This document shows positions 3,624 to 60,283 of a DNA stretch of 64,000 nt, one piece after another. Under the pieces are notes generated by a model. It ran no database searches. It was given only the letters and a program-made list of their open reading frames with translations, and was not told where the DNA came from. The position numbers and the translations under genes are program-made. How positions within the stretch are numbered: the stretch's first letter is position 1; every line of letters begins with the position of its first letter. This DNA comes from Podarcis cretensis (Eukaryota), in the NCBI GenBank assembly GCA_951804945.1, contig OX638155.1:51832001-51896000 (forward strand), read 5' to 3'.

Positions 3624-3624
<1 letters not shown>

Positions 3625-3650
<26 letters not shown>
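3625..3650. repeat. (TG)n microsatellite
   Basis: Directly visible, abuts the Sauria SINE head. Confidence 0.95.
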
Positions 3651-3654
<4 letters not shown>

Positions 3655-3657
3655 TCT

Positions 3658-4021
3658 GGGATGTGGGTGGCGCTGTGGTCTAAACCACTGAGCCTTGGGA
3701 TTGCCGATCAGGAGGTTGGTGGTTCGAATCTTCACGACGGGGTGAGCTCCTGTTGTTCGGTCCCAACTCCTGCCAACCTAGCAGTTCGAAAGCACGTCAA
3801 AGTGCAAGTAGATAAATAGGCACCACTCCAGCAGGAAGGTAAACGGCATTTCCATGCGCTGCTCTGGTTTCGCCAGAAGCGGCTTAATCATGCTGGCCAC
3901 ATGACCCGGAAAAACTGTCTGCGGACAAACGTCAGCTCCCTCGGCCAGTAAAGCGAGATGAGTGCCGCAACCCCAGAGCCGTTCGCGACTTGACTTAACT
4001 GTCAGGGGTCCTTTACCTTTT
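3658..4021 (+). mobile_element. Sauria SINE, full length
   Basis: Head GGGTGGCGCTGTGG with B-box GGTTCGAATC; core CCAACCTAGCAGTTCGAAAGCA...AGTAGATAAATAGG; ACCTTT-type tail. Confidence 0.92.
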
Positions 4022-5185
4022 TATATATGGATTCTACTAATTTCATGCATGAGATCAAAAGGGCTTGTTGCATACTGCAGTCCTGAATCACCAAATGTCT
4101 TGGAATTCAGGTCATCTCAAAGGGTTTGCCACATGTCAAAGTAGCTTGTGTGGAAGTTGATGGACGTTAAATGGAATGCTGGAGAGAGCCAATCAGTGCT
4201 GGAGCAGCCTGTTAGGACTGGACTTCAGCTTCTAGGTGCAAAAGCTACATAAAGCTTCAAAACTGAAAAAAAAAACACCTCGTGCCTTTCTTTTTCTTCT
4301 TTTTGCTTTATAAAATATATTTGGCCTTTTATTAATTTAGTTTCAATACTGCTTTGGCACACAACATGTTTTATAATTCTCTACAGTTCTCTATAAATAT
4401 GTATCCAATCGCCTGTAGATGTATTTTCTTTTTAATTCCATTCTGGTCTAATGAAATGAGCACCTGAAAAGGAGACCTATGTTTCCTTTGTGTATAAAAA
4501 TGACAATGTTTTGGTGGGCAAATGATTTTATTTTTTAGAGTTGTTGCATCTCCTCCTCTTGCCTCCCCTTACTGCTGCTGGCTCCCTAAAAAACCCCCAT
4601 CAAGGAGTCTCTGGCCCCCATGCGTCATTGGTAAGGGGTGGGCTTTTCCCTTAAGCCAGCCATTTTCAGGATGCACCTTTTTTCTTCCATATGGAAAGCA
4701 CAGAAGACATCACTGATTCTCTTGCTGTGCATTGGTTCGGGGCACAGAGAAAGACCATCCCGCCAAAAATGGCTTGGAGGAGGAAACCCATCCCAAAGGC
4801 CCATGACAAGGGTGGGTGAGCTTTTGGGGGGGTGTACCCTTTGCTTCCCCCACATGCATGTCAATGGACACAGGACTGCTATTTTGATTTTTACCCAAAC
4901 TATACCTGTAAACATGGCATCATGGGAAAAGCAAAAGGAGGCCACTCCAAATTGTTTCACTCCACCAACTTCCCTTGAAACAATTTTGTACACCCCCGCA
5001 AAAAAACAAAAACAAAATGAAGCCCCACTCACAAACCAGCGGTGGGGGGAGAAGGTGTCATTTCAAGCAGATCTAAGTATATATTTTATCTATCTGTCAA
5101 AATGCTATAACCTAAGATAGGATTATTTTCTGTCTCTTTTGTGGGTATTTATCTGATTGTTAATACTATCTTGCATCCTACATAG

Positions 5186-5399
5186 TGCACTTAGTGGATA
5201 TTTGGAATGTAATAGAAGCATTGCGGGAAAATTCATTGAACAACCTGGATCCGAACATAGAACTGAATGTGGCTCGAATTGAAGCTGTCCTGTCCACAGT
5301 TTTTTACCAACTGAACAAACGCATGCCAACTACCCACCAGATCAACGTAGAGCAATCCATCAGCTTACTACTCAACTTCCTGCTGGCAGCTTTTGATCC
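5186..5399 (+). CDS. DTNA: DTNA exon, EF-hand region ([13 protein letters not shown]...LLAAFDP), 214 nt
   Basis: catag|TGCAC acceptor; GATCC|gtaagt donor; ORF 5185..5403. Confidence 0.97.
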
Positions 5400-5656
5400 G
5401 TAAGTTTTCCTTCTTATATTATTGATTTTAATCTTTCCACAGAAAAATAGTACCAAAGTGAAATATCAGTTTGAGCTGGGCCTTGGACAAAGTGAAATTC
5501 CCGAATTACTGTTGTTGTTCAGAACTTTCTTAATTATGACTATAAAAGCTATATGTTACACATGTAGATGTGTGCAATATTACCTTGTTGCCTCGGGGAT
5601 TGGAGAAGTGGGAGTTGGAGGGAATGCTTAAATCTTTCCCTCCCCACCATTGTCTG

Positions 5657-30541: not shown

Positions 30542-30631
30542 GTTACATGAGGGTATAAATGTAGCCAGTCCTGTGGCTGATGAGCACTCTCTTATAAAGC
30601 TGTATGTAAATCAGCTTCACAACAATTTACG
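30542..30631 (+). CDS. DTNA: DTNA 90-nt cassette exon with alternative syntrophin-binding site (LHEGINVASPVADEHSLIKLYVNQLHNNLR)
   Basis: attcag|GTTAC acceptor; TTACG|gtcagt donor; phase 2-2; DEH..I..Y motif. Confidence 0.9.
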
Positions 30632-36855: not shown

Positions 36856-36948
36856 GTTACAGTATAGCCTCGATGTTGCAGACAGGCTGGCTGATGAACA
36901 TGTTCTCATTGGGTTGTATGTCAACATGCTCCAGAACAACCCCTCACG
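36856..36948 (+). CDS. DTNA: DTNA 93-nt cassette exon, syntrophin-binding site (LQYSLDVADRLADEHVLIGLYVNMLQNNPSR)
   Basis: tttcag|GTTAC acceptor; TCACG|gttagt donor; ORF 36716..36985. Confidence 0.95.
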
Positions 36949-39670: not shown

Positions 39671-40964
39671 ATACTCACAGTTAAATAGGAGTAACGTCCC
39701 CAGAGGGCTGCACTGACATGAGAGACATAAATGATTTCAATCAATCAAGATATTTGAATAGCCAAGATTGAGGCATGTTGGTTCCATAAACATTTTTTCT
39801 CATGCAAATTTCAAAAATGAAATGTACTTTTAACTTGCATTTATTTTTGGCATGTGGGGACGGGGAGTAATTTTCCTTCAAATCAGAGTGGCTTGTGTTT
39901 ATTGGAGTGTGGATGTCTTTGTTTCCTTTCCCAGGCAAGTGTGATATGACTAATTTGTTTGAGCCATCTGAGTTGACTTCGGGTGAATTAGCACACTCTA
40001 GTAGTCTCAGAAAATCTATCAACTGAGAAATAGCTAGTGGTGTTGCCTTGCCCTTTCCCACTTAATATCATACAAGTATATATCAAAATAATACATAGAA
40101 TTACTTTCTCCCACAAACTTGCAACCACAGTTGTCATGACAGCAAACAAGTGATGGAATTGTCACCTCTTGACTTGCCTAGAGGAGAGGATGTATAGGAT
40201 TGTTCTGGTTTTCCATCCTATCTAATGACTTTTCCCATCCTATCTAATGACTTTTTCACTACGAGAAGGATTTGGGATACCCCTGGCCTTTCACAGCATA
40301 TTTGGAAGCAGTTTTGCAACAACAGTCAGCTTCCACCCACCACCCACCCCCGCTTAGACACATTTCCTATTGGAAACCTTTACTTTCTCCCACAATTCAA
40401 TAGGCACGATTAGGCATGCATGGATGATTTGGAAGGAAGGATCCTGTCTTCAGTGGTGACTGTGGTGCAGGTTCAGCCATTCTTCCTTATTTGTGACTAG
40501 CTGCTATCTACTCTTAATGGGAAAAAGTAGAATACTTTTCTTGGGGACAATCTTGCACCTCCTCCACCCTTCCCTTATCGCAGTTTGCACAATTCAAACC
40601 ATGGCTTATTGGGAACAAGCAAATATGTGGGTTCCTAGAAAGAAGATCACAACCACATCACTCCTCCAGTTCTGCTGCACTGCTGTGAGCTAAGCCTTGA
40701 TTTGGTTTAGTGTTACATTCAAACTTAGGCTTGATCTCCCCAAGGTTTGTTCTATGGCTTACTGCTCTTGATTTGTCACAAGCCTAACTCTGGATGTGCT
40801 GCTAGGCCAAACCTTGGCTTATCTTATAGCAGCGCAGCAGCAGTAGAACCAGAGGAGGATCAACATGGCCACTGTCTTCTCCCCAGAAACCCCATGTTTG
40901 CTTGTGTGTGCTGTGCCAGGATTTTGCTTAGCAGTGTGTGTGTGAACCAGGCCACTGTGGTCAC

Positions 40965-41740
40965 AGTGTATCTGTACGTATAAGGACACAGACATGGGTT
41001 GCATCTCCAACAGTGTCGTTGTGGGCCCTTCATCCACTCTGCCTTGCCATGCTTATTTTCTTGAACACAATCTATTGAATTTTTAAACTTATCATATATT
41101 CCGGTGCTTAATTAAAAACTATGTGACTGAAAATTTTGCTTCCAATAAGTTGTTCTGAATGAAACACTTATCTTCACTCTTCCTCAAGTGTTGTTTCTTT
41201 CACATTTTTTGTTCAGTTTCAGTTTTTATACATGCACCATTTAAGCAGATGGTTTTTACTGAAGGATGAATCCATTCTCATGGGGGTGTGGGGGGGGGAG
41301 AGAGAGAGTCTGTAGCAAGACAATCTAAACCATACACAGAATTCCCAGGGGTCTCTTACCTTGCATTTAGAAAACAGTGTGTTGTAATGTAGAAGATAAA
41401 ATTTGCAGAACTTTGCCTCATCCCAGATTCAAAGAGAAATCTTGCGTTATCAACAAAGCTGAAGCATTTAAATACATCAAAAAGTTTCATATGAAGGAAA
41501 ATCTCATACAAATACATGCCCATATGCCTCATAACTGTATTAATTTTTAATTGGAGTAGTCCTGGTTAAAGAATTGTTATTGACATTAAAACCAGCATGC
41601 TTTACTTCATTTAATCAGTAGTTTAGGCTGCAGTTCTAAACACACCAGGGAGTCGGTCACATTAGAGTGGGACTTGCCTCTGACTAAACATTCATGACTT
41701 TGCACTGCTAATTCAACTTAAAGCTATGCAACACAATTCT
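40965..41740. repeat. Diverged dispersed repeat, copy A (homologous to 58303-59285)
   Basis: Colinear shared words: cactcttcctcaagtgtt, caccatttaagcag, caagacaatctaaacc, atttgcagaactttgc, aatacatgcc, ttaaagaattgtt. Confidence 0.9.
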
Positions 41741-42457
41741 GTTTAGCAGGAAGTCAGTCCTACAGTGCTCAGTGGGGCTTTCCCCCATGGAACAGAGCAT
41801 AAAAACGGAGTCTTAGGCTGTAATCCTATACTCATTTACCATGGCATAAGCATCACTGAGCTCAGTGGGACTGACTTCTGAGCAGTCAATAACCATTAAT
41901 AAATTATAATAAAAAGAGGAGTGTCAACCAGTTTAATTTAAATTTAATCCATTTATTGACAATTCATCTATTAATTTATGTATCACTGAAGCATAATTAT
42001 AGGTACTCTTTCATTACCGTAAAGACAGTGTGAGGAATCTTAAAATCTAATAAACTAGGGTTAAAATCCTGGGGTTGTAACTAAGGTTACATTTACCTAG
42101 GAGTAAGTCCCATTGAACTCAATGGGACTTACTTCTGAATAGATGTGCATAGAATTGTACTGTAATGTTACCACTCATTGTTAGGAATCGATATATTTAA
42201 TTTTTTCTTCAACGTTCAATGTTACAGTAATATATTCGAATCACAGTAGCCTAAAAGAATAAGCAAATGTGCCTGTAGCTCCCTTTGGGAGATAGTTATA
42301 ACATGTTCACGTAACATCAAACATGAAAGAAGATATTAAAGATATTTCATCTTCAAAATAAAAATATTTTGCCTTCAAAGATAAACCTTCCTGAAGGAGG
42401 AAAATAAGTTTACTTGATTCTTAGAAATTCAAAATAGCAAAGAGGCCATGCTGGAAA

Positions 42458-42850
42458 CATAAGAAAAGCCCTGCCAAATCAGCTCCAGGTCCAGCATCCA
42501 GTTCCCTACCGTAGCCAGCCTCCTCTAGTATTTCCCATGGTGTTTAGAGGTATACTTGGGAGCTGCATTTAGGTGGAATGGTTTATAGCCACTGATAGAC
42601 TTCTCCTCCATGAACTTTGTCAAATCGCCTTTGGAAGCTGCCTCTGTCAGCATGTATCACAGCATCTTTTAGCCATGAATTCCATAAGTTAATTGTGCAA
42701 TATATGAAATGCTTCATTTTGTCTGGCCTGATTCAACTGCCAGGGAATTTCACAAAGTGATCTTGAGTTCTAGAGTTTCAAGAGAGAGTAATTTTCCTCT
42801 GTCCACATTCTCCACACGAGTCATAATTTTATTAACCTCTATTATGTAAC
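42458..42850 (-). mobile_element. Degraded CR1 LINE 3' region
   Basis: Minus-strand IEVNKIMTRVENVDRGKLLSL resembles the CR1 ORF2 C-terminus; cataagaaaagccctg tail. Confidence 0.7.
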
Positions 42851-42937
42851 CTTTTTTTATATAGGTTATGGAATATTTTCCTCTCAACCTATATATTAAT
42901 GTCTCTCCCACTTTCCCTTGCCCTTCCCTCACAACAG

Positions 42938-43025
42938 TTTGCTCGACAGCCCAAACCGTCTAGATGAAGAGCACAGACTGATCGCAAGGTATGCAGCAAG
43001 ACTGGCAGCTGAGACTACTTCATCA
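42938..43025 (+). CDS. DTNA: DTNA exon, syntrophin-binding site ([29 protein letters not shown]), 88 nt
   Basis: Long pyrimidine tract, caacag|TTTG acceptor; TCA|gtaagt donor. Confidence 0.96.
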
Positions 43026-43195
43026 GTAAGTGGCTTTCATTAAGAGAAGGTGGTTTTGTTTTGTTTGAACTTGCTGAAATAAAAGGGTTGAGGAAAGCTA
43101 CCACTATCCCCTGGGATAGGCTTGTTTACATAGGAGGAACTATCTCTAGCCATGCTGAAAGATTGATTGGCACAAGTCTAGAAGTCACTGCAATC

Positions 43196-43196
<1 letters not shown>

Positions 43197-43231
<35 letters not shown>

Positions 43232-43699
43232 TTATTTTTATACCCCGCCCATCTGGCTGGGTTTCCCCAGCCACTCTGGGCTGCTTCCAACAAAAGATTA
43301 AAAATACTTTAAAACATCGGTCATTAAAAACTTCCCTAAACAGGGCTGTCTTCAGATGTCTTCTAAATGTCAGATAGTTGTTTATGGCTTTGACATCTGA
43401 TGGGAGGGTGTTCCTGGGGGGCGGGCAGCACTACCGAGAAGGCCCTCTGCCTGGTTCCCTGTAACTTTGCTTCTTGCAGTGAGGGAACCGCCAGAAGGCC
43501 CTCAGAGCTGGACCTCAGTGTCTGGGTTGAACGATGGGGGTGGAGCCACTCTTTCAGGTATACAGAACCAAGGCTGCTTAGGGCTTTAAAGGTGAGCACC
43601 AAAACTTTGAATTGTGCTCGGAAATGTACTGGGAGCCAATGTAGGTCTTTCAAGACTGGTGTTACGTGGTCTCGGCAGCCACTCCCAGTCACCATTCTA
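43197..43699 (-). mobile_element. L2 LINE 3' fragment with (TAA)n tail
   Basis: DHVTPVLKDLHWLPVHFRAQFKVLVLTFKAL...RAFSV, a typical L2 ORF2 C-terminus; microsatellite tail 43197-43230. Confidence 0.9.
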
Positions 43700-45499
43700 A
43701 AGGCACATGACTACTCAGAAGGAAGTCCTATTGAATTCAGTGGTGCCTGCTCCCAGCTGAGGTGTGTTAGGGTTGTCGCATTAAAGTTGAAGATTGGAAA
43801 TACTGACATCTCTGTGAGCACACATGATTTCTGGCTGCTACCACAGCAAATGCTGAATCTCTGAGGCTGCTTTGGCAATACTGCAGGGGCAAAAGCAAAA
43901 TCCAAGGCCTATCTGCCACATAAAACCCTTAGGACAAGAGGGTCCTTAGCGGCAGGTAGGGTTCCCCATCACCACTACTGTTCACTTTGTCCTTTCATCC
44001 TCCAAAACATATTCCTGCAAGTATCACAGGCAGAGAATGGGGTTTCTATTTCCAGGCCTTGGATTGCCTCAGAGAAATGATCCAGGTTTTGAGGGCTCAG
44101 GTCATTTCCAAGCTAATCCAAGGGGACTTTGGAAGAACTCAGTCATCCCTAAAATAGACCATGATTTCCAGTTAATGACAGACATTATTCCCCCATCCTT
44201 GCTGCATGTGCAGCACAGTTTCTCACTGTAAAAGCTACTTATCATGCTTGTCATACTGTGAGACTTGTCTCTGAAAATTATTACATGACAGTTAAAGGGG
44301 AAAAACTACTGCTGTAGAGAGAGTTCTCTTGCATCAGTGGAACAAAATATTGGCTAGTGCCACCAAGCAGAGGTTTTTCAAGAGATTTTTCAGAGATGTT
44401 GTGCCACCCAGTTGAGGACCTTCTCCATCTAGGAGAAGAAAGTGAGATTATGCTCATTATGACTTATTTGCTAAACACTTGGGACAGTAAAATCACTTGA
44501 ATCCATAGCTACTTATGTGCAATTCTGATTAAAATACAGCCAGTGAATACATTCAGAGCATTAGTTAAATTTTGTTGGGTATGTTTCAAGTGCTGTGGCC
44601 TCAGGCCTCTGTGATGTTGTCATTCCCCAACTGACCCTGTTCAATAAAGCCAGGACTGCTTCAGCTGTGCTAGTATTCTATTGATAGTTAGCAAGTAATG
44701 AGCTTCTTCCCCCTCCCCTTGTTACTCATCTCAGTTGTCTTCAAAATGGGAGGGGAACAGCAAATTAATTATCACAGTACCTCACCAAGGCTGAGAGTGT
44801 GCAGTCTATAGCTTTGCCACTGGAGCACCAGCTGCAATGATGAAGGTGATGCCAATGGCCAAATATTATTCTGACGTTTTGATTACTGATTGTGTCGTAA
44901 ACCAAGTAGTGCTTCTGTCATGAGGAGGAGCTGGGAGGGAGATTGATCACAAGGTCTTCTGAGGAAATTCTTAACAGATACTGTCAATTAACCAAGTAGT
45001 TATGAGAGAAGTGTGACTGGATGGAATGAAGGCCAAAATAATTTATGTGAGCCAGAAATCAGTTAATTGCTAGTCACTTTCAGTGCAGTGTCTCAGATGT
45101 ATGTATTTGGTTCTTCCACCCAATATCACACCGTGGACTTTTGGTCACACAATTGGATTTCCCTTTCTTCTTCTTCTTTTCCTCAACCCTCCAGAGCACA
45201 TTTTGTGGGTGTGCAGAAGGCTGCAGGGGGAAAGGGAATGATGGGGATTTCAGTTTTGTTTTTGTATTGTGTGGACCACCTTGAGTTTCTCTGAAAATCA
45301 GGCAGGGTATAATTTTTTGCAATTAATTTAAGTTGAATAAACACCTTTAGCCCCTATATTACACAAGCATTGCTGTACGATATCAGCCATATGGTTAATA
45401 TGTGTATGAATACAAAAAGGACAAAAGATGGGCATGTCTATCTTTAAACAATATACTTTTATTTGCCATTGTTATTGACATGAACAACCTGTCTTCCAG

Positions 45500-45606
45500 C
45501 AACTGCAACAGCAACCACAACAGAGAGGTGCTCCAGATATCTCATTCTCTATTGATGCTAATAAGCAACAAAGACAGCTTATTGCAGAACTTGAAAATAA
45601 GAACAG
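45500..45606 (+). CDS. DTNA: DTNA exon ([36 protein letters not shown]); start could be 45512
   Basis: ttccag|CAA acceptor, with further in-frame CAGs at +12 and +24; ACAG|gtaaga donor. Confidence 0.9.
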
Positions 45607-46717
45607 GTAAGAGTCTGTTGTAACCTACCTCCAAGCTAAATGTATGTCTGCGGATAGAAACAAAATGTATCAAGTTTCAAGGCAGAGTTGACCAAAACTG
45701 TGGTGAATCTGTCATGAGGGAACCTATAGATGCAGTATAATACACTGGGGCCACTGTTAGTTTCTGGGTTTTGGATTTAATTTAATAAGCTATAAGACAA
45801 TCTATACTTAAACAGTACCTCCTAGTTGCAGCATCTGAGCTTTCAGTTTTTCCATGGAGCAGATTTTGAGGCTGTGTGAAGAGGTACCTCTCTTTGGGAT
45901 GGGGAGGGGGGAGGCATCTCAGAGACCAGGGGCAGCAGCAGAGGCTGCCTGGAGGACTCCTGGTGAGAGGAGAGGAGGCTGAGGGAACACTACACAAGGG
46001 AGGGTGTTTGAAAAAGGGTGAGAGGCTGCCAGCTCTGCAGGCAAGGGGTGACATAACTGGGCTCCTGAGCCCCACAGGGGTGCCACAGAAAGAATGTAGT
46101 TGGTCAAGGGAACCATGGACTCAAAAAAAATGAAAACCTTTGCCCTAGCACAACAAAAAAGAAGAAACAAACACTTTGTGGTTTGTTAAGTGATGGGGAA
46201 ATGCATTGAAAAGTGTGAGATGAACAATTGTCTAATGAGAATACATATAAACACCCCATAAGAAATCGGAATGAATGCAGGACAAATGCTCATCATTGTT
46301 TAACCACCCCACAAACAAATCAGAAAGAATGTTCAACAGAGTCCAACTAGGTAAATCCAGAAGTGTTGCATCACTTGAGAGTGAAGGTGTTGTGCTATCT
46401 TCCAGGCAAGTGGGACACTCTTGCTTACCAAGAGAGGGAGGAGCTAGGTGGCAGGGAAGTCAGCACAGTGCAAACACACTAGGTGCTCCTGCTGGTGCTT
46501 TTGCACCATATTTACCTCCCTGCCGCCTCTCCCTCGAGGTAAGGAACAGTAACCCACCTGCCAGTTAGTGAAGCAGTTCCCCTGTCACCAGCTGCTCCTG
46601 ATGTACTTTTGTGCAGGCACAAGCCAGGATGAATGCCCAATAAACAGGTCATTTAGAGGGGCCCTTGGTGAAAACGTTACCTACGGCTTACCTCTTCTTC
46701 TTCTCTTCTTCTGTAAG

Positions 46718-46831
46718 AGAAATCTTACAAGAGATTCACAGGCTGCGACTTGAACATGAGCAGGCGTCTCAACCCACTCCAGAGAAGGCAGCGCAGAATC
46801 CTACTCTCCTGGCAGAACTTCGGCTCCTGAG
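46718..46831 (+). CDS. DTNA: DTNA exon, coiled coil ([15 protein letters not shown]...LAELRLLR), 114 nt
   Basis: Pyrimidine tract, gtaag|AGAA acceptor; GAG|gtaagt donor. Confidence 0.96.
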
Positions 46832-47734
46832 GTAAGTACATAAAGTATATTATATTCAGCCAATGACTTCAGAGGTTTCTTATTAAAAAAATAATAATAA
46901 CACAATCTTACACATCTCTACTCAGAAATAAGCCACATTCAGTTCAGTGGGGCACACTACCAGGTAGCATATATTGTTTTGAGGTTGTGTTTTCCATTAT
47001 TGATTTTACTAATGGAGTTGTCAAAAGATAACTCTTCCTCTAACTAGAAAAAAATAATGGCAGCAACATGCAACATTAGTGTTGTAGAACTTATTAGAAA
47101 GTGATCAAGATCAATGTTCAAGTTTAACTGTTTCCCTTTTGGAGACCCATCCTAAAATGTGTTTTAGAATACTACAAATAGGGTGAAATAGTTTTACTTT
47201 TTTTAAAAAAAAAGTCCCTTGATTATGCAGTGCTGGAATTTTTACTTGACTCTCTGAGGCTGTAATCCTGTGTACACTATCCTAGGGGTAAGCTAGTGTG
47301 CGTGGTGCTTGTTTTTGCATTTCTTTGATTTTGCTTCACAGATAAAAAAAACATAATAACTTTCTTTAAATTTATTGACACTGAATGTCCTTAGGGAGCT
47401 TTGTCAACAGAGATCTGTCCTCCATTTTAATTTGCAATGTCACAGGAAGCAGTATATGTCCAAGCTTGTGTGCGGTCAGAATAGTAATAGTTAATTAACA
47501 GTTAAAGGGGCTTATTTTAATTCCTTGCACAACATTTGCAAAATAGCCAAATGAAAGCTTCTCAGCATAATGAAAATATAAGTAGGGACTATGTGGTTGT
47601 TCCCCCAAGTGTTCTGTGCAGTGTACTGGCTATTTCACAGTCCCAGGTTCTCTAATAAAAATATCACTGTGGCTCTCTAACCTGAACACCAGGCTTTGCC
47701 AGTCTAGTGCCCTCCCGGTGTTTTGAACTACAAC

Positions 47735-47805
47735 CAGTGCTTTTTTCCTGGGGGTACACAAAGGTATGCAGTACCAGCACCTTTTTTTCTCGAAGGAAAG
47801 CACTG
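47735..47805. mobile_element. 71-bp hAT-type mini-MITE
   Basis: TIR cagtgcttt / aaagcactg; flanks actacaac / actagaac; related end fragment at ~14385-14445. Confidence 0.8.
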
Positions 47806-49024
47806 ACTAGAACACTAATCTGCATTCTGCTTAAAGGCTGTTCTTGCTGGGGGGGTTCAAAAGATCCCAGAAAGCTCAAAAAGTCGGCCCAGTAAACTGA
47901 AATCAGGTGATGGGGAAGAAAACTTAATTATTAAATTGTCATTCTAGTTGGCTAAGAAGTTGAGAGTGGAAGTTAAGATAATGTCTGTAAGGACTCTTCC
48001 AGACATCCTTTTTTATTGAGCATTCATCATGATTTGTGCTTGTTATGTTATTTCAGCAGCTCTATGTTATCCCCAATTAACACTCAACTTTAAAAGAAAC
48101 CAGAAGTTAGTACCTCCTTAAAGGACACTGAACATGTTCCTTACATTGAAAAGTATAGTGTTTGAAACTATATCTGTTGATACTGTAGTCAGCAGAGGAT
48201 GAACATGTATGTGAATGCACCTTTGAGGCAATGTGTGTTGTGCCAAATAATCAGCAAATAGATGCAAGATCATACTCAGCAGTGTGGCATCAGTTTGTCC
48301 TGGATCAGGAGACCTTTTGGAATAGCTGAATTACCAGGGAAAGGAATCCCAAGAGCTAGAGTAACACATATTGAAAAAGCAACTTCTGGTTCCAAACCCA
48401 GCCAACTGTTAAATAGGCTTTACCAACTTGAACTCACAATGGCAGAAGGAGGGCAGATTCTGACAAAAATCCAGGATGTTCAGGAAATGTCAGCCTTTTC
48501 TGTGGGCAGACTTTTAGCCGGTAAACATTTGATCCATTAGAGAATCAATATTGAGTATCAGAATAGGACAAGGGAGTGCTAACTTCATATCCTCTCTTGA
48601 ATGGGTCACCTTGAGCAAGTTATCCCCTCTCAGCCTAACCTATTTTATGGATTGTTGTGGAGACAAAATAAGAAGTGAGGAAAGGACTTTCTATGCATGT
48701 TGTCCTGAGCTTCTTGGAATAAGAGACAGATAAAAACAAATAATAAAATAAATATATATTTGGTGCATTGGAGTAGCATGGTGGTGAGCTAGGAAAAGAT
48801 TCTGGAGGGCTTGTTGTCTGCTGCAAGAGTGGAACCAAGCTCCATGTTTTGAGCTGTGCTCATGGTCAGTCTTGGGGCAAAAACTTCCTGCATAGGAAAT
48901 CAGGTGCAACATTATAACACATGTTTTGGATTACAAATGCAGGCTTTTCCACTGCATGTTCATTTGTCTGGGAAGCTTTGGAATGGTTAGCTACATGCCC
49001 TGATCTTAAATGCTTATTTCTTAG

Positions 49025-49121
49025 GCAGAGGAAGGATGAGCTTGAACAGAGGATGTCAGCTCTTCAGGAAAGCCGGAGAGAACTCATGGTTCAGTTAGAA
49101 GGCCTCATGAAACTGCTAAAG
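49025..49121 (+). CDS. DTNA: DTNA exon, coiled coil ([13 protein letters not shown]...GLMKLLK), 97 nt
   Basis: cttag|GCAG acceptor; AAG|gtaaac donor. Confidence 0.97.
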
Positions 49122-49166
49122 GTAAACTATTTTAATTCCCAAGCTTATACGATTTCTCTCCTAGAC

Positions 49167-49292
49167 CAGGGATGTGGAACCTGTAGCCCTCCAGATGATG
49201 TATGACTCCACTCTTCCCTGAGCATTGGCCATGCTGATTGGGGTTGATGGAGTCTAACCGCAGCTCAGGGGACTCCAGATTTCCCATCCCTG
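49167..49292. mobile_element. Palindromic hAT MITE, same family as 20406
   Basis: cagggatg ... catccctg. Confidence 0.75.
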
Positions 49293-50359
49293 CCATAGTT
49301 GTTTGTTCTGGGAAATACCTCCCACTAACTTCAGATATTCCTATTGCCCAGACAAATAGGTTGTTGTTGCTGTTATCTTTTCAACCTACAATTTGACCAT
49401 TGTTTCCACAAAAACAGCAGCAATGGAGAGTGGATCCAAATGCCCTTTTCTCCAGGTACTTAGTACTGAGGAGCTAAGGAGTGTTGTTGCTAGTTGTCAT
49501 ATTTCATTATATACACCCCCTGTTTATTAACCTCTTCAACCTAAATGATTTGGAAAAGGACTAATGTGCAGAAATACATCCCTTTGATAACAGAAATTAA
49601 GATGGGGAGGGGAGGGGGCAGATGGGCAAGGACTCAACTTCTTTGTTTGGAATTTTGTTCATATTTTAAAAGATCAGTCCTGGCATAAACTAGCCTGGTC
49701 TCATTAAACTTAATACCTGCAGGGGCTAAAATTATATTCTTTTCCTGTTAGCTACCCCTATTTAACAAAGTATATTTGTTGATGTACAGAGGTGCACAGC
49801 AAAAGAGCTATTAAGCCATCTTTGCTGTTTCTCAGTCCTGTATAGGGTCTGAGTCCAACCCCCTGCCATGCAGGAATCTCAGCTAAAACATCCATGACAA
49901 ATGGCAATCCATCCTCTGCATAAAAACATCCAAGGAAGGAGGCTCATAATATATACAAAATATATTTGCATCCAACAACATGACAAGCTTTAGGAAATGT
50001 GAGGCTGGCCCCTTTAATGGTTTGAGTGCACCACTTAACTTGGAGCTGTGTTGCTATATAGCCACTCCTGTTGTTATGTATGTACAGTGAGAACATTTAA
50101 AATGTAAGAGTCCTGCTGAATCTGACCATCTACGGTACTCTAGCAGTGATTAGCCAGGTCACTCCAAAACTTCTCAAATGGGAGAGAAAGGCAACAGCTC
50201 TCCTTCATTATTGCCCCCCCCCCCTGGAAATTGATGTTCAGAAGTATGCTGTTCTAAGACCAAGGGGTGACAATCCTGCTCTGTAGCTGCAGCTCTCTCC
50301 CCTATCTCACACTTTAAGCTCAGACTCATCTGACTCGCAATCATCCAATCTTTCTTTAG

Positions 50360-50380
50360 GAAGAAGAATTGAAGCAGGGA
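50360..50380 (+). CDS. DTNA: DTNA 21-nt alternative exon (EEELKQG)
   Basis: tctttctttag|GAAGAAGAATTGAAGCAGGGA|gtaagt. Confidence 0.93.
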
Positions 50381-50410
50381 GTAAGTTATTTACTCTGTAG
50401 ATGTCACTAA
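50360..50410 (+). CDS. DTNA: Alpha-dystrobrevin-2-type terminal exon by donor read-through (EEELKQGVSYLLCRCH*)
   Basis: Resembles the recalled mammalian alpha-DB2 end EEELKQGVSYVPYCRS*; AATAAA at 50486-50491. Confidence 0.8.
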   Translation, partial: EEELKQGVSYLLCRCH

Positions 50411-51074
50411 CTCTTAAGAAGCGCTCCTGTGATCCAAATGTGTGCTTACTACATCTGCTTGAAATGCGTTTACATGCTCTGGACCAATAAATAACACTAC
50501 CTCGCACGTCTTTCACCTTTTATATGAGAAGTTAAGGTACTTTAAATAGTCAGCTGTTATGGCTTTCTTGATAGGTCAGCAACAACAAAACAGATCTCTG
50601 TGGCTCACTACTGATATAATGGTATCTTTGGCATGAAGAGCAATAACTCTTCAATGCTGTCCAACACAAACTATTGAATTGTGTGAACATGAGCAAACTC
50701 CTTGAAGTTGAAAATGTAGAGGTACTTCAGATTGATGAAATGCTAAGTCCATCCCCCAACCCAAGTAACAGCTTTGAGAATATTTGAAAAATAATTCCAT
50801 AACCTATTTGTACTGAAAAATGCACTAAGGTTGTGTTTGTAATTATCTTTCCAAATGCATTAAATTACACTGAAGCCAAAGGAATAATGTTGCTTAAGTG
50901 ACTAAAGTGTAGCATTCTCACTGGCTCAGGAAGTGTTGAGGGATTTCTCACTATACTAAAGCAGAGTTTTGTTTCTTGGTTCAGCTACGAAATCAATGTG
51001 CAGTAGCTAGAACTATGTGCACACAGATTAGGAGAAAACTGGTAGTATTGGGCCATTGCTGATCTATTGGTATA

Positions 51075-51300
51075 CAGTGGTACCTCGGGTTAAGAACTTA
51101 ATTCATTCCCGAGGTCCGTTCTTAACCTGAAACTTTTCTTAACCTGAGGCACCACTTTAGCTAATGGGGCCTCCTGCTGCAGCCACACCACCACCACACG
51201 ATTTCTGTTCTCATCCTGAAGCAAAGTTCTTAACCCGAGGTACTATTTCTGGGTTAGCAGAGTCTGTAACCAGAATCGTCTGTAACCCGAGGTACCACTG
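51075..51300. mobile_element. Tc1/mariner (Tigger/pogo-like) MITE
   Basis: Perfect 18-bp TIR CAGTGGTACCTCGGGTTA; TA TSD on both sides. Confidence 0.93.
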
Positions 51301-54300
51301 TATCTGCATTAAAAGTACTATTGTTACTTTTCATAATGTAAGATTTGAGCCCACTTTTTTATTGAACCCAACTCACTGAACTCATTTAAAGTGAACAATT
51401 ATTCAAATTGCAGTTTTATGCTGAATTTTCACTCAGATATTTTCAATATGAAAAGTAGGTTTTGAGGAGTGTGAAAAGCATCCTGACCTCCCCACTCCAC
51501 ATTTTTATGGTGTTGGGAAGGTTATACCTGATCATGGCCCCAAAATGTTACTGCTTCTTTGCAACTTCAATGGTTTCTTTCTCCTTCAGTGCAAGATCCC
51601 TGCCAATCAGTGATCACATAGAGCTACTGATGGCACCAGAGCATAAAAATCACATTTGTCTAACAGACAACACTGAGGGCAGTGCTTTCATTTTAAAATA
51701 TTCATGTCCTACCTTTCTGGGGGGTGGGCTGTGGAATATCCAAGTTGACTACACTGCATGGCAAAACTTTTGCTACACATTTTTGCATCTGACTACTAGT
51801 GACAGAAATGCAGTAAAAAAGGACGACATCCCCATTTGGATGTGCATCTGAATACCAGTTTTCTCTATCAACACTGTGTTACTTTCACAGGCTGCACATC
51901 CACTTGCACATCTCCACCCATATTGTACCACAACCAGTCGAGAACATTTAACTAGGAGGAACAAAGGAGCATCTACCTTCTGTCTTTCCTCCTCCTCACT
52001 TTCCCCAAACCCCATCCATTTGTGAATACTTTTTCACAAAAGGGTGTTTAGCCAGCAAAGTGGGAGCTTTTCATGAGGGGTGAAAAGATTTGTAAAGGGG
52101 GGGACCCACTCTGTTTCAGCTCAGCATAAGTGCATATTGTTATAAAGGGCAAAGATATACAAATCTATCATATATATTTTCTGCTTAGTGTACTAAGCAT
52201 TTCTGTTTTCCATGTTCCTAATTTTTCTGTTCAGAAATGTAGCTCTTTTATTTTGTATAGATTTCTACCCTGGTGATTCTAACCTGTGAGCCACTCTAGG
52301 TTCCAGCAGAGGGAGCTACATACCAAAGACTAACAGAAGAGATTTGTTTTAAGTTTTACCGAACTGAGGGGAGGGTGATTGTAGATAAAACTTAAGTATC
52401 TTATTACTAGTTTCTTATCAGTGCACTCAGTGAGAAGATACAGATGACATTCCTCATTAAAATTGTCATTGTCAAAATTGTAGCTGCTGTAACAGGAAAC
52501 GGATTTGTCTGTTTGCAGACATAACAGCAGTGTGAGCTTGACAAATAAATTTTTTAAAAACGTAGAAATGCCAAATAGATGCTTCCAGAACTAAGAACCC
52601 AAAGCAGCTCCCATACTTTTCTCCAAGCTCTACTAGTGTTTATCTGGGCATCAAGATTCTAGCCACAATGAATAGTGTAAACTGTGGGGTTGGCAGTTAA
52701 GGGATAGAATGGAGCTATCTCCATACAGAAATCCACATTGGAACCATGGTTTCCAGTAATGGGGATAGTAATTCCAGAGTGGACACAGAACTTACAGCAG
52801 GATCAAGACACAATCCAGAAATAAAGAGAGGTTTCTGGTGTGGGGTTGAGGATGTTCCCTCCTGCCTTGTGCTAGTGCAAAAATGCAGCTGAAAGCCCCA
52901 GTTGCATTTGAAGGTCTTCTATACAGTGAGGTTTGTTGTGTTGTGTTGTGTTTTACCTTTGCCTTACTGAATTAGAGTGGACTGAGGAAACCATTCCTGC
53001 TTCCATGATCAAGTTCAGAATTTTGGTAGGGCAGAATTGAAACAATCCATTCTCTGTCATGACTCTGCAAGCTCTCAACATTTTTGCCACATCAGGAGCA
53101 AAACGGTGACTTGAAAGTGGGGTGTTGCTGTGGAAAGAACTTGGAAGAATGGACCACACCTCTTCGGCTGTGCACTTCCCACTATGAGCCTATTAGCAAC
53201 TGTACTCTACTTCTAAAAAGTAAACAAAGTCAATTAAGTTTTGCTCAAAGTAGACCCATTGAAATGAAGGGCCCTAACCTCGACATGTTAAACTTCAATG
53301 GGTCTACCCTGAGAAAAACTTAGTTGAATACTGCTCGTTAGTATAGACTCCTATCTCTGCAGTCCATTCCCCTTCCTTGCATAGAGTTCATAACTCTAAA
53401 GCAGGTCTGCAAAACCTGTAACCCACCAAGCTGAATTCTGCTCATCAACTCTGTATGGCAACCAGGTGGGGCTCAGTAAACCACCTGCTGCTGCTCCCTA
53501 CGTGGGATGAGAAAAACAGGATTAACTGGCAGAGAATCGATGAGTATAAGATCTTTGTGTATTCTGTGATGTGTTCTGCTCACTTTCACTGACCAACTAC
53601 ATGTCTTTCTTATGACTGATGTTAAAACACTTTGTCCAGGATTAAGATACCCTCCTTAGGCTCACATAAAAGGCTTGCATGCACTCATGCTGGGGTTTGC
53701 TGTTTGGTTTTGTTTCCTAACAATAGCTATTTGTGCTGTGTTCTACGGCCAAACTGTGCATTGCCTTAAACATACAGCCAATGATAACTTGTATCATCTC
53801 CTAACAAGCTTTAATTAAAGCAGAAGGTGTGACCTGACATCATCACGCTTAGCAATTTCCTTCCCCACCTTGAACCACCATAGGCAGAAGCCATTGAAAG
53901 ACAGCCAGGGCAGAGAAGCACTGGGCATGAGGATGGCATGGAGTACTGGGTCCATTTCAGGACCCCACACTTCTAGTATTTGTTTTAGAAAGGAGTTCCT
54001 ACATCTAATTTTTGAACACAGTTCTTTTCTGTATGAAAAGTTAACAATTCTATCCAAGACATCCAGCCTTCTTAATGCAAAGACCTCTGCATCTTTGTAA
54101 CTTTTATTATATACTGTGTAAAACACCTAGAGGCCTATTTTGGCATTAAGCAGAATATAATAGTAACAGTAATAATAATAATGCAAAATAGAAGACTGTA
54201 TTGTATTACTATGCACATTGTTAACATTATATTTTCCATGGGGGGGGGGGGGGAGAAGTTCCATATATGGGGGTTTTTAATGTCCATTTGAACCCTGGAA

Positions 54301-54563
54301 CTTATAAGATCCTTTTGGCCATTTCTCCTGTCTTACTTCACTACATTTTTACATTTCTGCTGTTTTACTAGTATGCACGCCTGACCCTATTAACTAACAA
54401 AGAGACTGATGTGCTCGCTTTCCATCAGGATGATCCCAGTATTCAGCATGACATGGCATTTTCTGACTGTTTGCACAGTAGGAATATAATTAGTGATGGC
54501 AGCGCTGGGGCGCTCTCTGCTGTAAGTCGTGCTTAACCCACTTAGCAAACCTTTTTATTCCAG

Positions 54564-54723
54564 ACCCAAGGGGCAGGCTCCCCACGCTCTTCTCCCAGCC
54601 ACACTATCAGCCGGCCTATTCCTATGCCCATCAGATCTGCGTCTGCCTGCTCGACTCCAGCCCACACACCTCAGGACTCTCTGACAGGCGTGGGAGGAGA
54701 TGTGCAGGAAGCCTTTGCACAAG
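54564..54723 (+). CDS. DTNA: DTNA exon ([13 protein letters not shown]...VQEAFAQ), 160 nt
   Basis: ttccag|ACCC acceptor; CAAG|gtaagt donor. Confidence 0.97.
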
Positions 54724-56064
54724 GTAAGTTGTGCAGAGCATCCTTTGCTACAAAGTGGTTGTGCTTAGGAATAGTCAGCAGGGGTGGGGGAAATGCCCTG
54801 CAACTCAGTGACTTCTTCCCTTATCGTACATATGCCATGTCATCTACAAATGAGTTTTTTATCATTTAAGGTGGGCATAGCCAACTGATGTGTCCAGATC
54901 AGCCCCGGAAGCATGGCCAATGGTTGGGGTTGACGAGAGCTGTACTCCAACAACATCTGGAAGGCACCCCAATTTAGCCTAATTAAAAGCTTGTGTTTAG
55001 AACAAGTGGTATCAGTGAGAGGATTCCTAATGGCATAAAACAATTGTAAAAAGTTAGTATTGTTTCACCATAATGAAAAGCATGAGGAAAAGATTTGGCC
55101 TAACTAACTAAACAAGCCAGATTATCTGCAACAGACACAACATCCTCTATTAATCAAGTGTACATAAAGATGCATTGTATTCTCTGGCCATAGCAATTAT
55201 ACTTCTTCATAATGTGCCACATTGTTGCATGATAATTTCTCATGCCAGCTGCTTGACTCCTCCGAGTCCTCTTCATTGGCCTCCAAGTCCCTATAACAAA
55301 AGTGATTCTTTAGTTAGGAGCACCAATTCCCCTGTATTGCTTTAGTGCAGAGGCGAGGACGAAATACAGAGCCCGGGGACCAAATGCAGTCCTCCAGAAC
55401 TGTGTATTTGGACCTCAGGACTCTCTGCAGGCCACACAGCCTCCCCAGGCTGCATCTCTCATAGACTGGACTGTGCTCTGTGCTCTTGTCTGAATGTGTA
55501 TTGTCCTTGGGTTCTAATGCCTCTTGCTTGCCTGGATAGAAGATGGGAAGACCATGGGGGTATATGTATGGATAATTCTGAATTGTGTGGCTGGAGCATA
55601 GCCTCCACTGGAATATAACCACAATGAAAGGGTGTAAAAAAGGGTTAAAAGTCCCTCCACTGCTCAGCCTGCTTTTTGCTTCTGGCCCTGATCACCAGTC
55701 CAGCATGCAGCCTCTGGAAGATTGCCCACAGGGGAATGTAGGCTTTGAGCTGAAGAAGATCCCCCTCCTCAGTCTTTGTGGATAGTGCATGTGGGCTGGA
55801 GCAGTAAACAGTTGCTGAAAGTATAAGCTTGCAATGGAGGAGGAAGCGGGTAAGAAACTGGGAAACTGTGTTAGAAAATGCAAAATATATGAATTTTGTA
55901 TTTGGTTCTTAAGCAATGAAGATTCGTAGCAAATAAAGAATAAGCATGGGAAGGATTAAAAGCCAGGTTGCTGTTTTTAACTCAGTGGAAAATGGGGTTG
56001 GTTTTTTATTTGTTTGTTTTTGTTGTGTTCAGCATGGAACTAGCTCATTAAAAAGTTATATCGG

Positions 56065-56195
56065 AAGGGATGGGGAACCTGTGTCCCTTCAGATGATGTT
56101 GGGACTGCATTATCCCTGACTGTTGGCCATGCTGGCAGGAGATGATGGGAGCTTGAGCTCAACAATATTTGTGGGGCCAGACATCCCCTACCCTG
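56065..56195. mobile_element. Palindromic hAT MITE, same family as 20406 (diverged)
   Basis: agggatggggaacctgtg ... tcccctaccctg. Confidence 0.7.
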
Positions 56196-56619
56196 GTTCT
56201 ACCAGTGGCCAACATGGGTTTAGTGAAGCTGGGTTTTTGAGGGCTTGGGCAAGCATCATGAACTCTCTGAGGTTTTTGTTTTCGTTGGCTGATCACAACA
56301 CCATAGCAAACCTTGCTTTGGAATGTCCTCTGAGTTTCCAAAGTTGATTGTGACATGGAAAGCAGGCTGGATATCCCATTCCTTTGGATCCTGATCTATA
56401 TTTTATTCTAGATTGGTGGCACCAGCATTAGATGAAACACTAGCAGTGGTTGCTGTGTGGTGTAGGAAAGGGGAAACCACGTCCACATAAAAGCTACATG
56501 AATATAGATCTAAAATGTGTTTTTCATTTACTGCACTGTAGTTTAATTACACTCTCTAGTTGTTAAGCTTACAGGGGGTAAGGAGACCTCTGAACATAAA
56601 GCTTTGCTTCTCTTCACAG

Positions 56620-56709
56620 GTTCAAGAAGAAATTTAAGGAATGACTTGCTGGTAGCAGCAGATTCAATCACCAACACTATGTCTTCTCTGGTGAAAGAAC
56701 TGAACTCAG
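56620..56709 (+). CDS. DTNA: DTNA exon ([29 protein letters not shown]), 90 nt
   Basis: tcacag|GTTCA acceptor; TCAG|gtctga donor. Confidence 0.96.
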
Positions 56710-57347
56710 GTCTGATTATTTAAAAGCAGAATTAATATTTAACCATTCAACACTCTTTTTAAAAAACCATAATGTTTATAGACTACAAAAAGAGATGTAC
56801 AGTATGTTATGTAGAAGATGTTTTTAATATGTAAGGAGAAAGGTGTGGCAAATTCTGTTGAAGACAGTCGCCCCCATCCAAGGTAACTAGAGTGCAACGC
56901 TAAGAGTTTCTTTCTCTCTCCCACTCACACACAAAATCAATTTTTTACTCTTGAAGCAGAGTTGCATAGTTTAACGCTACATGGGTAACAAAAGAGAGCC
57001 CAAACTCTGCAGTGTTTTGCATAAGGAGGTTTGGCAGCAACCCATTGTTAGAGCTGTGGCACTGTGGTACCCATGCTGACCCCTTCATTGGTTAAAGGGA
57101 ATCAACATGGAGATTGGCCTAATCCCTGTGTCAAGGTGAACTAAATAATCAAACCTGCTACACAATAAATGATCTCTGTGCATGAGTATCAGCACTACAT
57201 GAGTAAAGTAAGCAAACTAACTGTATGCAACTGGTGTGTTTATAGCCATTTAGGATGGTGGTATAAAGTCAGTCTGTGCTAGAAACATGAGAGAAACTTC
57301 CTAGAGTTCATGTAACCATAGTACCATTGGTGCCTTTCTTCCCACAG

Positions 57348-57516
57348 AAGTTGGAAGTGAGACAGAGAGTAATGTGGATTCTGAGTTTGGTCGGACTCAT
57401 TTTGATGACCTTGTTCCATCACCAACTTCTGAAAAGGCTTTCCTTGCGCAGATTCATGCCCGGAAGCCAGGATACCTTCACAGTGCAGCTGCCTCTGGCA
57501 CCATCCGCAGTGATAT
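57348..57516 (+). CDS. DTNA: DTNA exon (EVGSETESNVDSEF...GTIRSDM), 169 nt
   Basis: ccacag|AAG acceptor; GATAT|gtgggt donor is the one in phase with the next exon. Confidence 0.93.
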
Positions 57517-58302
57517 GTGGGTAACTCCTTGTGCTCTTTATCTCTCTTTCCTTATTAAATAATATATATTCCATATTGTCTTCAATAAACCATCTCTGAA
57601 GCTAAGCAAATGTGGTATGTACATGTAATATGGAGTTGCTCTCTTAACCAAATATTAGGCCAAGAATAGCAATGAGGGCTATTGTGTTTAAATCCATTTT
57701 ATGAATCTCACAGCCTTCAAAAGAAAAACAATTATGCGGTGATTTTAACTTGGAAATTCAGCACTAAAGCAAATAAATGTAGAAACTGTTTGTTTTCAGG
57801 GCAGAGCCCTTTACTAGGAGATGAATTTAGCAATTGCTGACCTCCAGCTAGAGGAAAATAATGTTTCCAGTGGATATTGTTACAGTATATGTTTGTGGGG
57901 TGGTAGGCTGTAGACCTGGGCCCCCTTCTAATTCCTGAGGTATCCAGGCTAGCTTCTTGGTGAGGGGATAGCCTAAGTCACGGGCCTTTAAGGGAACAGG
58001 GGAAATGGCTCAGAAATTAGCCTCCTCTTCCCATTCCACATAACAAAAACTGCTCTTGAAATTTTATTTTGTTACTCCTAATCCTTACAAACTGCTGGCC
58101 CTTATTGGTTCATAGAGTAGACAAAAACAGCAGTTGCACAGTCCACACTGCTGACATTCTGCACGCACTGTGACCTGGTTATGGCTAAGCATGAATGAGC
58201 AGGTACTTAAGAGTAGAAATCATGTCCACTTTGCCCCTAGTCTTGCTCAAACCCATGACCCTGAGATTAAAAGTTTCATGCTCTACCAACTGAACTATCC
58301 CT

Positions 58303-59285
58303 TCAGTCTGTATGTATAGAGGACACAGAAACAGGTTGCACCCCCAGCAGGGTCCCTGTAATACATGGCCCCTTCCTCTGCTCTGCCTTCTATTTACGTA
58401 TGTTAGACCTTAATTAAAAGCCATGACTGGAATTTGGCTTCTAATAAATTATCCCAAATGAATCTCTTATTTACACTCTTCCTCAAGTGTTTTGGTTTTT
58501 TATTTATTTCGACTGTGTCAGACCAGCACGGCTACCTACCTGAATCAAGTGTCAAGTGTTCTGCATTTTTTTGCTCAGTTTCGATCTTTATACATACACC
58601 ATTTAAGCAGGTGGATTTGCAGTAGGACAAAGCCATTCTAGCTGCAGGGGGAAAGTCAGTCCCTACCAAGACAATCTAAACCTAATTTCTGTATACAGAA
58701 TTTCCAATGTTGCCTTACCTTCCATTTACAAAACAGTCTTTCGCAATGTAGAATATGATATTTGCAGAACTTTGCTTCATCTCAGATTCAGAGAGAAATT
58801 CTGCATATCAGTTATGCCAAAGCATTAAAGACATACTGATGAGTCACAAATGTAGGAAAAATACATACCAATACATGCCTATGCCTTATATCCTCTATTC
58901 AGGTACATGGTGAAGACTTTTTAAAAACTTTAGCAGGCATCTTAAGTTAGCCTTTTTTACTTTATGTTTAGTTTTAACTGATTTTATCTTTGTATCTTTT
59001 TTGTAATCGCATTGTGCACAGCTTAGAAACTATGGTGTTAAGTGGTATTTCAGTTGCTGAAATAAATAAAAAAAGTAAAGTAGGAGATGTCCTGATTAAA
59101 GAATTGTTTGTGATTTCTTTAAATATGCATGTTTTAATTCAATTAATCAGAAGTTTAAGCTGCAATTCTAAGTGTGGTTACTAGGGAGTAAGCTTTACTG
59201 ACAAAGTGGGACTTACCTCCAAGTAAACATACATAGGATTGCACTGTTAAATCAACTAACACTGTGCAAAAGAATCCTAAGCATG
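58303..59285. repeat. Diverged dispersed repeat, copy B, with private insertions at ~58491-58551 and ~58890-59075
   Basis: Colinear with 40965-41740. Confidence 0.9.
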
Positions 59286-60150
59286 TTTAATCAAGCATGT
59301 TCTTGGTTTACTGCTCATTGTTTGTTTGGGGGAGACAAACTGCAAGCCTGGGTTAATACATACTGCTAAGCCAAACTCTGACTTTGCTTTGGGTAGCGCA
59401 GAAGCAGTGGGTTTCTTTCGACAACTCAGTTGGTGGCATGCAGCTGACAAATTTTGTGGAAAGAATAAAGCACCCATGATCTTAGCTCTGAGTACCTGAA
59501 CGCTTGCTCATTCATGCTTAGCCACAGTTTGGCTTAATGTTATGTGCTAACTGGGCTAGTGAGTGTGCTTTAGAGAAAGCAGTGCTTATCTTTTCCCCCA
59601 GGGTACTTCCTGTGTTCTCGGCTGTGAATTCCTACCCAGACCAGAATCATAAACACAGTTCTGACATAGATGGCTACGTTATCTCCTTCCTAGATTATAC
59701 CATTTCAGACTGCAGGTGTTGAGGGTCATATTGTAATTCTCATATGTTGTCTCTTCAAAGCGAGAGAGAGAAAACTCCCTGCCAGTAGAGATCCATCATT
59801 TATTATGTGAGGAAGCAAATGCAGCCTCCAAATTTTAGGCTGACATGGTGCAGTCTAGGAATTCATTTTTCATTTCAGAACAGTAGTCAGGGTCTAGCAT
59901 ACAGTAATTATCCCCAAAGGCACTGCAAGTAGGAATCTCTCTGTGAATGAACAGATCCATTTGAAAGATGAAATGTGAATGTGTAAACAAATAAGTCCTC
60001 TGTTTTGAAAGAATATACAGTATATGGAGTTTTTAAGAAATACACAAAACAGGACTTGCCTTTCAGAGTTCATGAAGAAAACACAATGAGTCTTCTGAAT
60101 GTTAGCATTTTAAAAATTTTAGGAAGCTATTTATTAATAATTGTCTTTAG

Positions 60151-60283
60151 GGTTACAGAAGATGGAGACCCTTACGTTAGAGCAGATGATGAGAACTATG
60201 AAAATGACTCTGTTCGCCAGCTAGAGCATGAGCTCAAGATGGAGGAATATTTGAAACAAAAGCTGCAGGATGAAGCTTATCAG
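60151..60283 (+). CDS. DTNA: DTNA exon, alpha-DB1 tyrosine tail (VTEDGDPYV...LQDEAYQ), 133 nt
   Basis: ctttag|GGTT acceptor; CAG|gtaaaa donor. Confidence 0.96.

Follow-up and report, generated by a model that had tools for sequence, protein, structure and literature searches.

A duplicated block in two introns of DTNA

The window analysed here comprises 64,000 nucleotides of the Podarcis cretensis genome (assembly GCA_951804945.1, contig OX638155.1, positions 51,832,001 to 51,896,000 of the forward strand); it contains exons of the dystrobrevin gene DTNA, which is transcribed on the plus strand of the window. Two DTNA introns carry diverged copies of one block of DNA (Table 1): block A lies between exons 13 and 14, and block B is in the intron that separates the exons 57345-57516 and 60151-60283, where it is flanked on both sides by pieces of a palindromic MITE (miniature inverted-repeat transposable element) with terminal inverted repeats (TIRs), here termed M2.

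Comparison of the window with itself by BLAST returned four colinear, direct high-scoring segment pairs (HSPs) that link 40971-41740 in A to 58307-59278 in B at 71.6-80.2% identity (best E 5.8e-48); a HOXD70 local alignment of the two blocks scored 22,370, and the best of 20 null comparisons reached 3,446. Over 710 alignment columns the blocks are 77.3% identical (96 transitions, 65 transversions), which corresponds to a Kimura two-parameter distance of 0.275 +/- 0.024. Block A measures 770 bp and block B 972 bp with its later insertions included; the two are 17.3 kb apart. A sequence-only reading of the window had described a 0.8-1 kb block occurring twice in direct orientation, about 17 kb apart, free of DTNA exons and with a palindromic MITE remnant at the same relative position in both copies; the alignment is highly significant, the remnant (M1a) is found in A and in B, and neither block overlaps an exon. 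The identity of 70-75% estimated there was slightly low. A larger tandem duplication that includes exons was ruled out, as no significant homology extends past the block ends. The distance between A and B is about eight times the intron distance between the window and a related genome, organism G (3.3%); if the rate published for wall lizards (1.98e-9 per site per year; PMC8760935) and its lineage apply here, the copy event would be ~70 My old.

Table 1. Features of the window that bear on the A/B duplication (window positions)
Feature	Position	Strand	Basis and remarks
DTNA exon 13 (first syntrophin-binding site, i.e. site 1), borders the intron with A on its upstream side	36856..36948	+	Open reading frame (ORF), splice sites, dystrobrevin chain stretch 424-442; numbering after PMC2796648
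M2_A, near-complete palindromic TIR MITE, MA subtype, ends ~15 bp before A	40581..40957		Consensus 9-446, 80% to MA consensus; hairpin fold z -3.0
Block A, putative donor: unique intronic DNA and small MITE remnants	40971..41740	+	Alignment, two copies genome-wide
M1a, ~90-bp palindromic MITE remnant in A	41630..41712		Common to A and B
M1b, whole ~80-bp palindromic MITE in A, putative right breakpoint inside	41727..41804		Consensus 16-94, 72%
DTNA exon 14, syntrophin-binding site 2	42938..43025	+	PDB dystrobrevin match E 1.7e-9; donor in RNA-type contigs
DTNA exon upstream of the intron with B	57345..57516	+	Joints 56706-57345 and 57516-60151
M2 left end (B-left), MB subtype	58172..58235	+	Consensus ~8-95; private 23-bp deletion at 58180
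Short interspersed nuclear element (SINE), tRNA-derived, ~150 bp, 5' half	58230..58302	-	3' half lost
Block B, putative derived copy of A	58307..59293	+	Alignment
Private insertion in B, young, end of a high-copy retroelement	58492..58560		9-bp target duplication; 939 candidates, 87-98% among the 38 matches listed
Private insertion in B, older, 5'-truncated 3' tail of long interspersed nuclear element (LINE) type	58891..59082	+	70 candidates
M1a copy in B	59162..59250		Shared with A
M1b, first 21 bp in B, cut at the M2 junction	59273..59293		19/21 to consensus
M2 right half (B-right), intact terminal TIR	59288..59557	+	Consensus 207-443, 82%
DTNA exon downstream of B	60151..60283	+	Joint 57516-60151

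Block B also gained two private insertions, as the sequence-only reading had proposed. The younger is presumably Penelope-like; the older, which left no remnant in A, is taken by us to be L2-like.

A probably interrupted MITE around block B

The consensus of M2 (~445 bp), rebuilt from 58 loci, is a palindromic TIR element that folds into a hairpin (z -3.0) and whose short TIR ends begin with G(G/A)CC; its 3-bp target site duplication (TSD) is exact in four of the ten well-defined copies and agrees at two of three bases in two of them, with 7 of 17 full-length copies excluded from the count for poor ends. In its TIR start, 3-bp TSD and hairpin M2 resembles palindromic PIF/Harbinger-type MITEs, the superfamily to which we assume it belongs; the names used here for M1, M2 and the SINE are provisional. 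The element is sparse: the 1.264 Mb sampled here (464 kb around the locus and four other 200-kb regions) hold 21 loci, the three pieces adjoining A and B included, or about one per 60-70 kb.

Block B sits between an M2 left end (B-left) and an M2 right half (B-right); their consensus intervals do not overlap, and both TIRs point outward. In the window genome 9 bp of the left TIR remain before a 23-bp deletion at 58180 that is private to this genome; all four related runs have 23 bases at this position that agree with M2 consensus 14-36 at 18-20 of 23 sites and make the left TIR whole. Both pieces carry three diagnostic states that are rare in the M2 family and occur together in 0/9 unselected arms, in 0/28 arms found with M2_A and in 6/32 arms found with B-right as query. 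Compared with B-right, B-left reaches a score of 2371, and compared with M2_A it reaches 989-1141; the scores and the diagnostic bases rule out B-left as a paralogue of M2_A. The simplest reading of these comparisons is that B-left and B-right are a single M2 copy split by block B. All related taxa compared (1-4% diverged) carry B. Two further length differences were seen in this region: one related run has 8 additional bases at 58198, and three related runs contain 31-37 bp at ~59798 that the window genome lacks.

The right end of the block indicates the direction of copying. A second shared MITE, M1b, begins just right of M1a in both blocks; since M1b is whole in A and reduced in B to a 21-bp stub before M2 resumes, B is probably the derived copy, and copying probably ran from A to B. 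The stub and M2 overlap by ~6 bases at this right junction, where neither poly(A) nor a target duplication was seen. M1 copies are clustered near A, with four of differing ages within 540 bp (41630-42165; 72-86% to consensus). At the left junction, B-left is followed by the 5' half of a SINE. Retrotransposition truncates 5' ends; since the half retained here is the 5' half, a later deletion would have removed the SINE tail together with the original left junction, and the same deletion would explain the gap in the M2 consensus (~95-113 versus 207).

We consider it probable (about 0.7) that B is a one-off copy of intronic A, pasted by error-prone break repair inside a hairpin-forming MITE 17 kb away. 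The two M2 pieces would originally have formed one element; a DNA break would have occurred near the centre of the M2 palindrome, and the free end would have copied A in cis through strand invasion and synthesis, by synthesis-dependent strand annealing or template switching, before being rejoined at M2 consensus position ~207. The SINE insertion and the deletion at the left junction came afterwards, and B gained its two insertions.

Several observations weigh against this reading. Three of 58 other M2 loci outscore B-right as a match to B-left, and the two pieces may share merely a subfamily; on the consensus they are separated by ~95-110 bases, more than the 30 allowed by the published filter; the flanks of the putative split element match the 3-bp TSD at two of three bases; M2 copies are often partial (49 of 74 matches); and the left junction has been erased by the later deletion, a state common to all four related runs. 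The distance of 17 kb falls outside the class of less than 5 kb that Pace et al. call confidently (PMC2671141). Finally, the 90 bp after the right end of M2 (59558-59647) resemble the remainder of M1b in A (41752-41841) in an anchored comparison with a post hoc p of 0.008, and p was 0.021, 0.061 and 0.236 at three other lengths tried. The similarity scores 103, versus 3,000-5,400 in five true-homology controls, and among 596 windows of true homology 1.8% have a score of at most 300; since a score of 103 is about equally likely under homology and under chance, this test is about neutral.

The same weak similarity favours a plain local duplication of A, extended to ~41840, into unique intron, with M2 inserting later into the M1b of block B and losing its left half, and with the left M2 piece as an independent neighbour; the triplet flanking M2 on the right is also present at the corresponding point of M1b, and half copies of M2 are common. 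Yet this scenario needs two insertions of one minor subfamily within ~1.1 kb, at the low density of M2 given above, as well as four indels in 90 bp and a deletion whose end happens to fall only a few bases from the TIR; moreover, the region after M2 shows no match to the M1 consensus (p 0.39), and flanks farther out cannot be aligned (p 0.32-0.47). We regard it as unlikely.

Copying of A into M2 by repair could have followed a more specific route, which we put forward as a tentative and rather doubtful extension: the repair end may have found its template through MITE homology, with M2, M2_A and M1b acting as break site, guide and stop. The end leaving M2 in the last intron would have invaded M2_A 17 kb upstream, and synthesis would have continued through A until it stalled in M1b, a second hairpin. 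Guidance of this kind would account for a donor that starts ~15 bp from an M2 end and for a stop inside a palindrome.

Copy number, transcription and constraint

As a query against the genome (1.5 Gb), block A returned two candidates, both at the DTNA locus, and the first 605 bp of B returned 41 matches, three of them in the A/B copies and 38 to the 69-bp private insertion. The flanking MITE pieces and the second insertion of B, which served as controls of comparable age, returned 75, 46 and 70 candidates with 68-94% identity. All these counts are lower bounds; the search skips very common words and scores the best candidates alone. Since A has two candidates while equally diverged repeats give 46-75, it does not behave as a dispersed family, and further copies of an old family of that kind would probably have come up in such a search. 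The suggestion of the sequence-only reading that A and B are two insertions of an uncatalogued repeat family is not supported; in the genome-wide count, A and B are the two copies found. A candidate copy in a region with a dystrobrevin-family paralogue (C3, 200 kb; probably DTNB, unconfirmed) was rejected, as its matches start in insertion or MITE columns alone.

A narrower version of the repeat hypothesis, in which a very low-copy, undescribed transposon inserted twice, for example by a local hop, would fit the proximity and direct orientation of the copies, and the limits of the genome search just mentioned leave some room for it. However, an A/B profile (nhmmer) found no third copy in the ~1.26 Mb sampled, where its matches elsewhere all begin in MITE or insertion columns; the block ends show no TIRs, tail or shared TSD; there is no conserved ORF; and the right end cuts across an older MITE. 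This version is extremely improbable.

The 1.264-Mb sample contains two-copy HSPs of at least 150 bp, five with their copies within 50 kb (four loci, A/B included) and eleven with copies farther apart; judged from the far pairs, an estimated ~1 near pair would arise by chance. The two-copy state of the three other close pairs refers to this sample. The first is a perfect 5,405-bp head-to-tail tandem duplicate with 100% identity (G000:C7:52033741-52044550, L038-L039), which could be an artefact of the assembly or a duplication of very recent date. The second, a 385-bp direct pair, is 95% identical and 19.7 kb apart (G000:C3:60883449-60883830 / 60903136-60903520); its second copy begins right after a palindromic repeat, and the pair is possibly a younger case of the same process as A/B. 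The third is a 256-bp inverted pair, 89% identical and 5.7 kb apart (G000:C7:51784446-51784691 / 51789916-51790170), and both of its copies adjoin a repeat.

The coding, splicing, Rfam and constraint data give no sign of function for A or B, although weak constraint is possible. Six-frame translation of A and B yielded no shared open frame, and the mismatches between them have no codon-position bias, and a coding or antisense exon was rejected; a structured RNA was rejected as well, with no Rfam match at E<=1 in 36000-61000. Identity between the blocks is even over eleven 60-column windows (chi2 13.8, df 10). The core of B differs from three related taxa at at least 5-6 positions per 330 bp, compared to 13-19 per ~1,280 bp for whole contigs; block A differs from organism G at 16/613 positions and eight other intronic pieces at 150/4,565 (a hand sum; the difference is not significant). 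These short distances to relatives give little power against weak constraint. On this evidence, B appears to have decayed neutrally since it was copied.

Four transcript-type runs, classed as RNA by guess, cover both blocks with low-depth contigs, as they do other introns: three contigs of X15 tile A, and B has cover from X17 and X19. The segment 58319-58452 is uncovered in four related runs but covered by X17; no meaning is attached to this. Coverage of this kind, together with a donor-like minus-strand hexamer that is kept in both blocks (A ~41355, B ~58715) and the slightly lower divergence of A from organism G, which is not significant, could be read in favour of a functional element under selection, either a duplicated enhancer or an exon of an antisense transcript, whatever its origin. 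On the other side, an X15 contig (41299-41579) runs unspliced through the hexamer; the 15 splice joints shown (98 more are not shown) all lie outside A and B, and the joint 57516-60151 passes over B; identity is even, B has tolerated two insertions, and it has no deficit of differences. A functional element kept by selection is very unlikely.

DTNA joints are seen in contigs of all four RNA-type runs, and the joint over B occurs in one of the four. The gene assignment is supported by a third syntrophin-binding exon at ~30580-30630, which is intact and fits exon 11b, since this exon is reported as present in alpha-dystrobrevin and absent from beta- and gamma-dystrobrevin (PMC2796648). A microexon of ~21-23 nt (50358-50380) is spliced between 49119 and 54564 in two of the four RNA-type runs, and in one run the contig continues into the intron (50358-51100), as for the 3' end of a shorter isoform. 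In the joint 43025-45499, which leaves exon 14, five letters match neither side; probably the acceptor either sits slightly ahead of 45499, by a few bases, or is different in that taxon.

Comparison with known duplication processes

With regard to origin, B is likely to be either an old repair-mediated duplication or a single-copy Pack-TIR. The old intragenic duplication that the sequence-only reading had offered as one of two explanations stands, in the form of a two-copy intronic pair; the position of B between the halves of a TIR MITE had been missed, and it gives the probable direction from A to B and places the case under a described process. The duplication is of a known, ordinary kind, and no paper on this DTNA case turned up in literature searches at the level of listings. 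As a single case it has little weight: it looks like a neutral scar of repair, and such scars number in the hundreds in other vertebrates. It does show that such captures are readable at 27% divergence, where published filters would miss them, and the presence or absence of B and of the empty MITE provides a datable marker for lizard phylogeny. If MITE-to-MITE guidance were true at many loci, it would add one specific way for hairpin transposons to remodel introns; in squamate genomes, palindromic MITEs would then serve local duplications as the site of the break, as guide and as stop signal.

Repair-mediated duplications, as characterized by Pace et al. (2009; PMC2671141), consist of unique DNA inside an interrupted transposable element (TE), with one nearby donor; 824 proximal cases are given for human and 6-266 each for chicken, zebrafish, mouse, rat, dog and cow, and the main text has no mention of a lizard in its species set. 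Like these cases, block B is unique DNA that occurs at one other place and lies in an interrupted transposon; its donor is on the same chromosome, its location is intronic and its decay looks neutral, and the insert of at least 50 bp is enclosed by TE pieces of the same family and orientation, neither of which exceeds 95% of the consensus. In contrast to them, the donor is 17.3 kb away (less than 5 kb in the confident class) and measures 770 bp (maximum 619 bp for proximal and 3,424 bp for distant cases), the TE pieces are ~100 consensus bases apart (filter +/-30), and the A/B copy is much older.

Single-copy Pack-TIRs arise by gap filling (Tan et al., 2021; PMC8277862), and a table in that study includes PIF-Harbinger hosts of similar size (487 bp). 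The one lizard genome in it, anoCar2, has 0 Pack-TIRs, with 77 consensus-length DNA TEs counted there. The DTNA locus shares with Pack-TIRs the presence of non-TE sequence enclosed by both TIR ends of a DNA transposon that is short and ~18% diverged, the single copy, the donor in cis and the breakpoint within the element; both flanks cover at least 10 bp of the termini, and the left TIR is intact in all four related runs. It departs from them in identity (77% versus at least 90%) and in raw length ratio (126%, or 972/770 with insertions included, versus 80-120%), cut-offs that act as filters for young cases, and in having TEs within 100 bp of the parent sequence, with M2_A ~15 bp left of A and M1b at its right end. 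Since the 5-kb, +/-30-bp, 90%-identity and TE-free-parent filters of the two studies exclude it, the locus is not a strict member of either list; it works like both repair-mediated duplications and Pack-TIRs, and is an old, eroded example.

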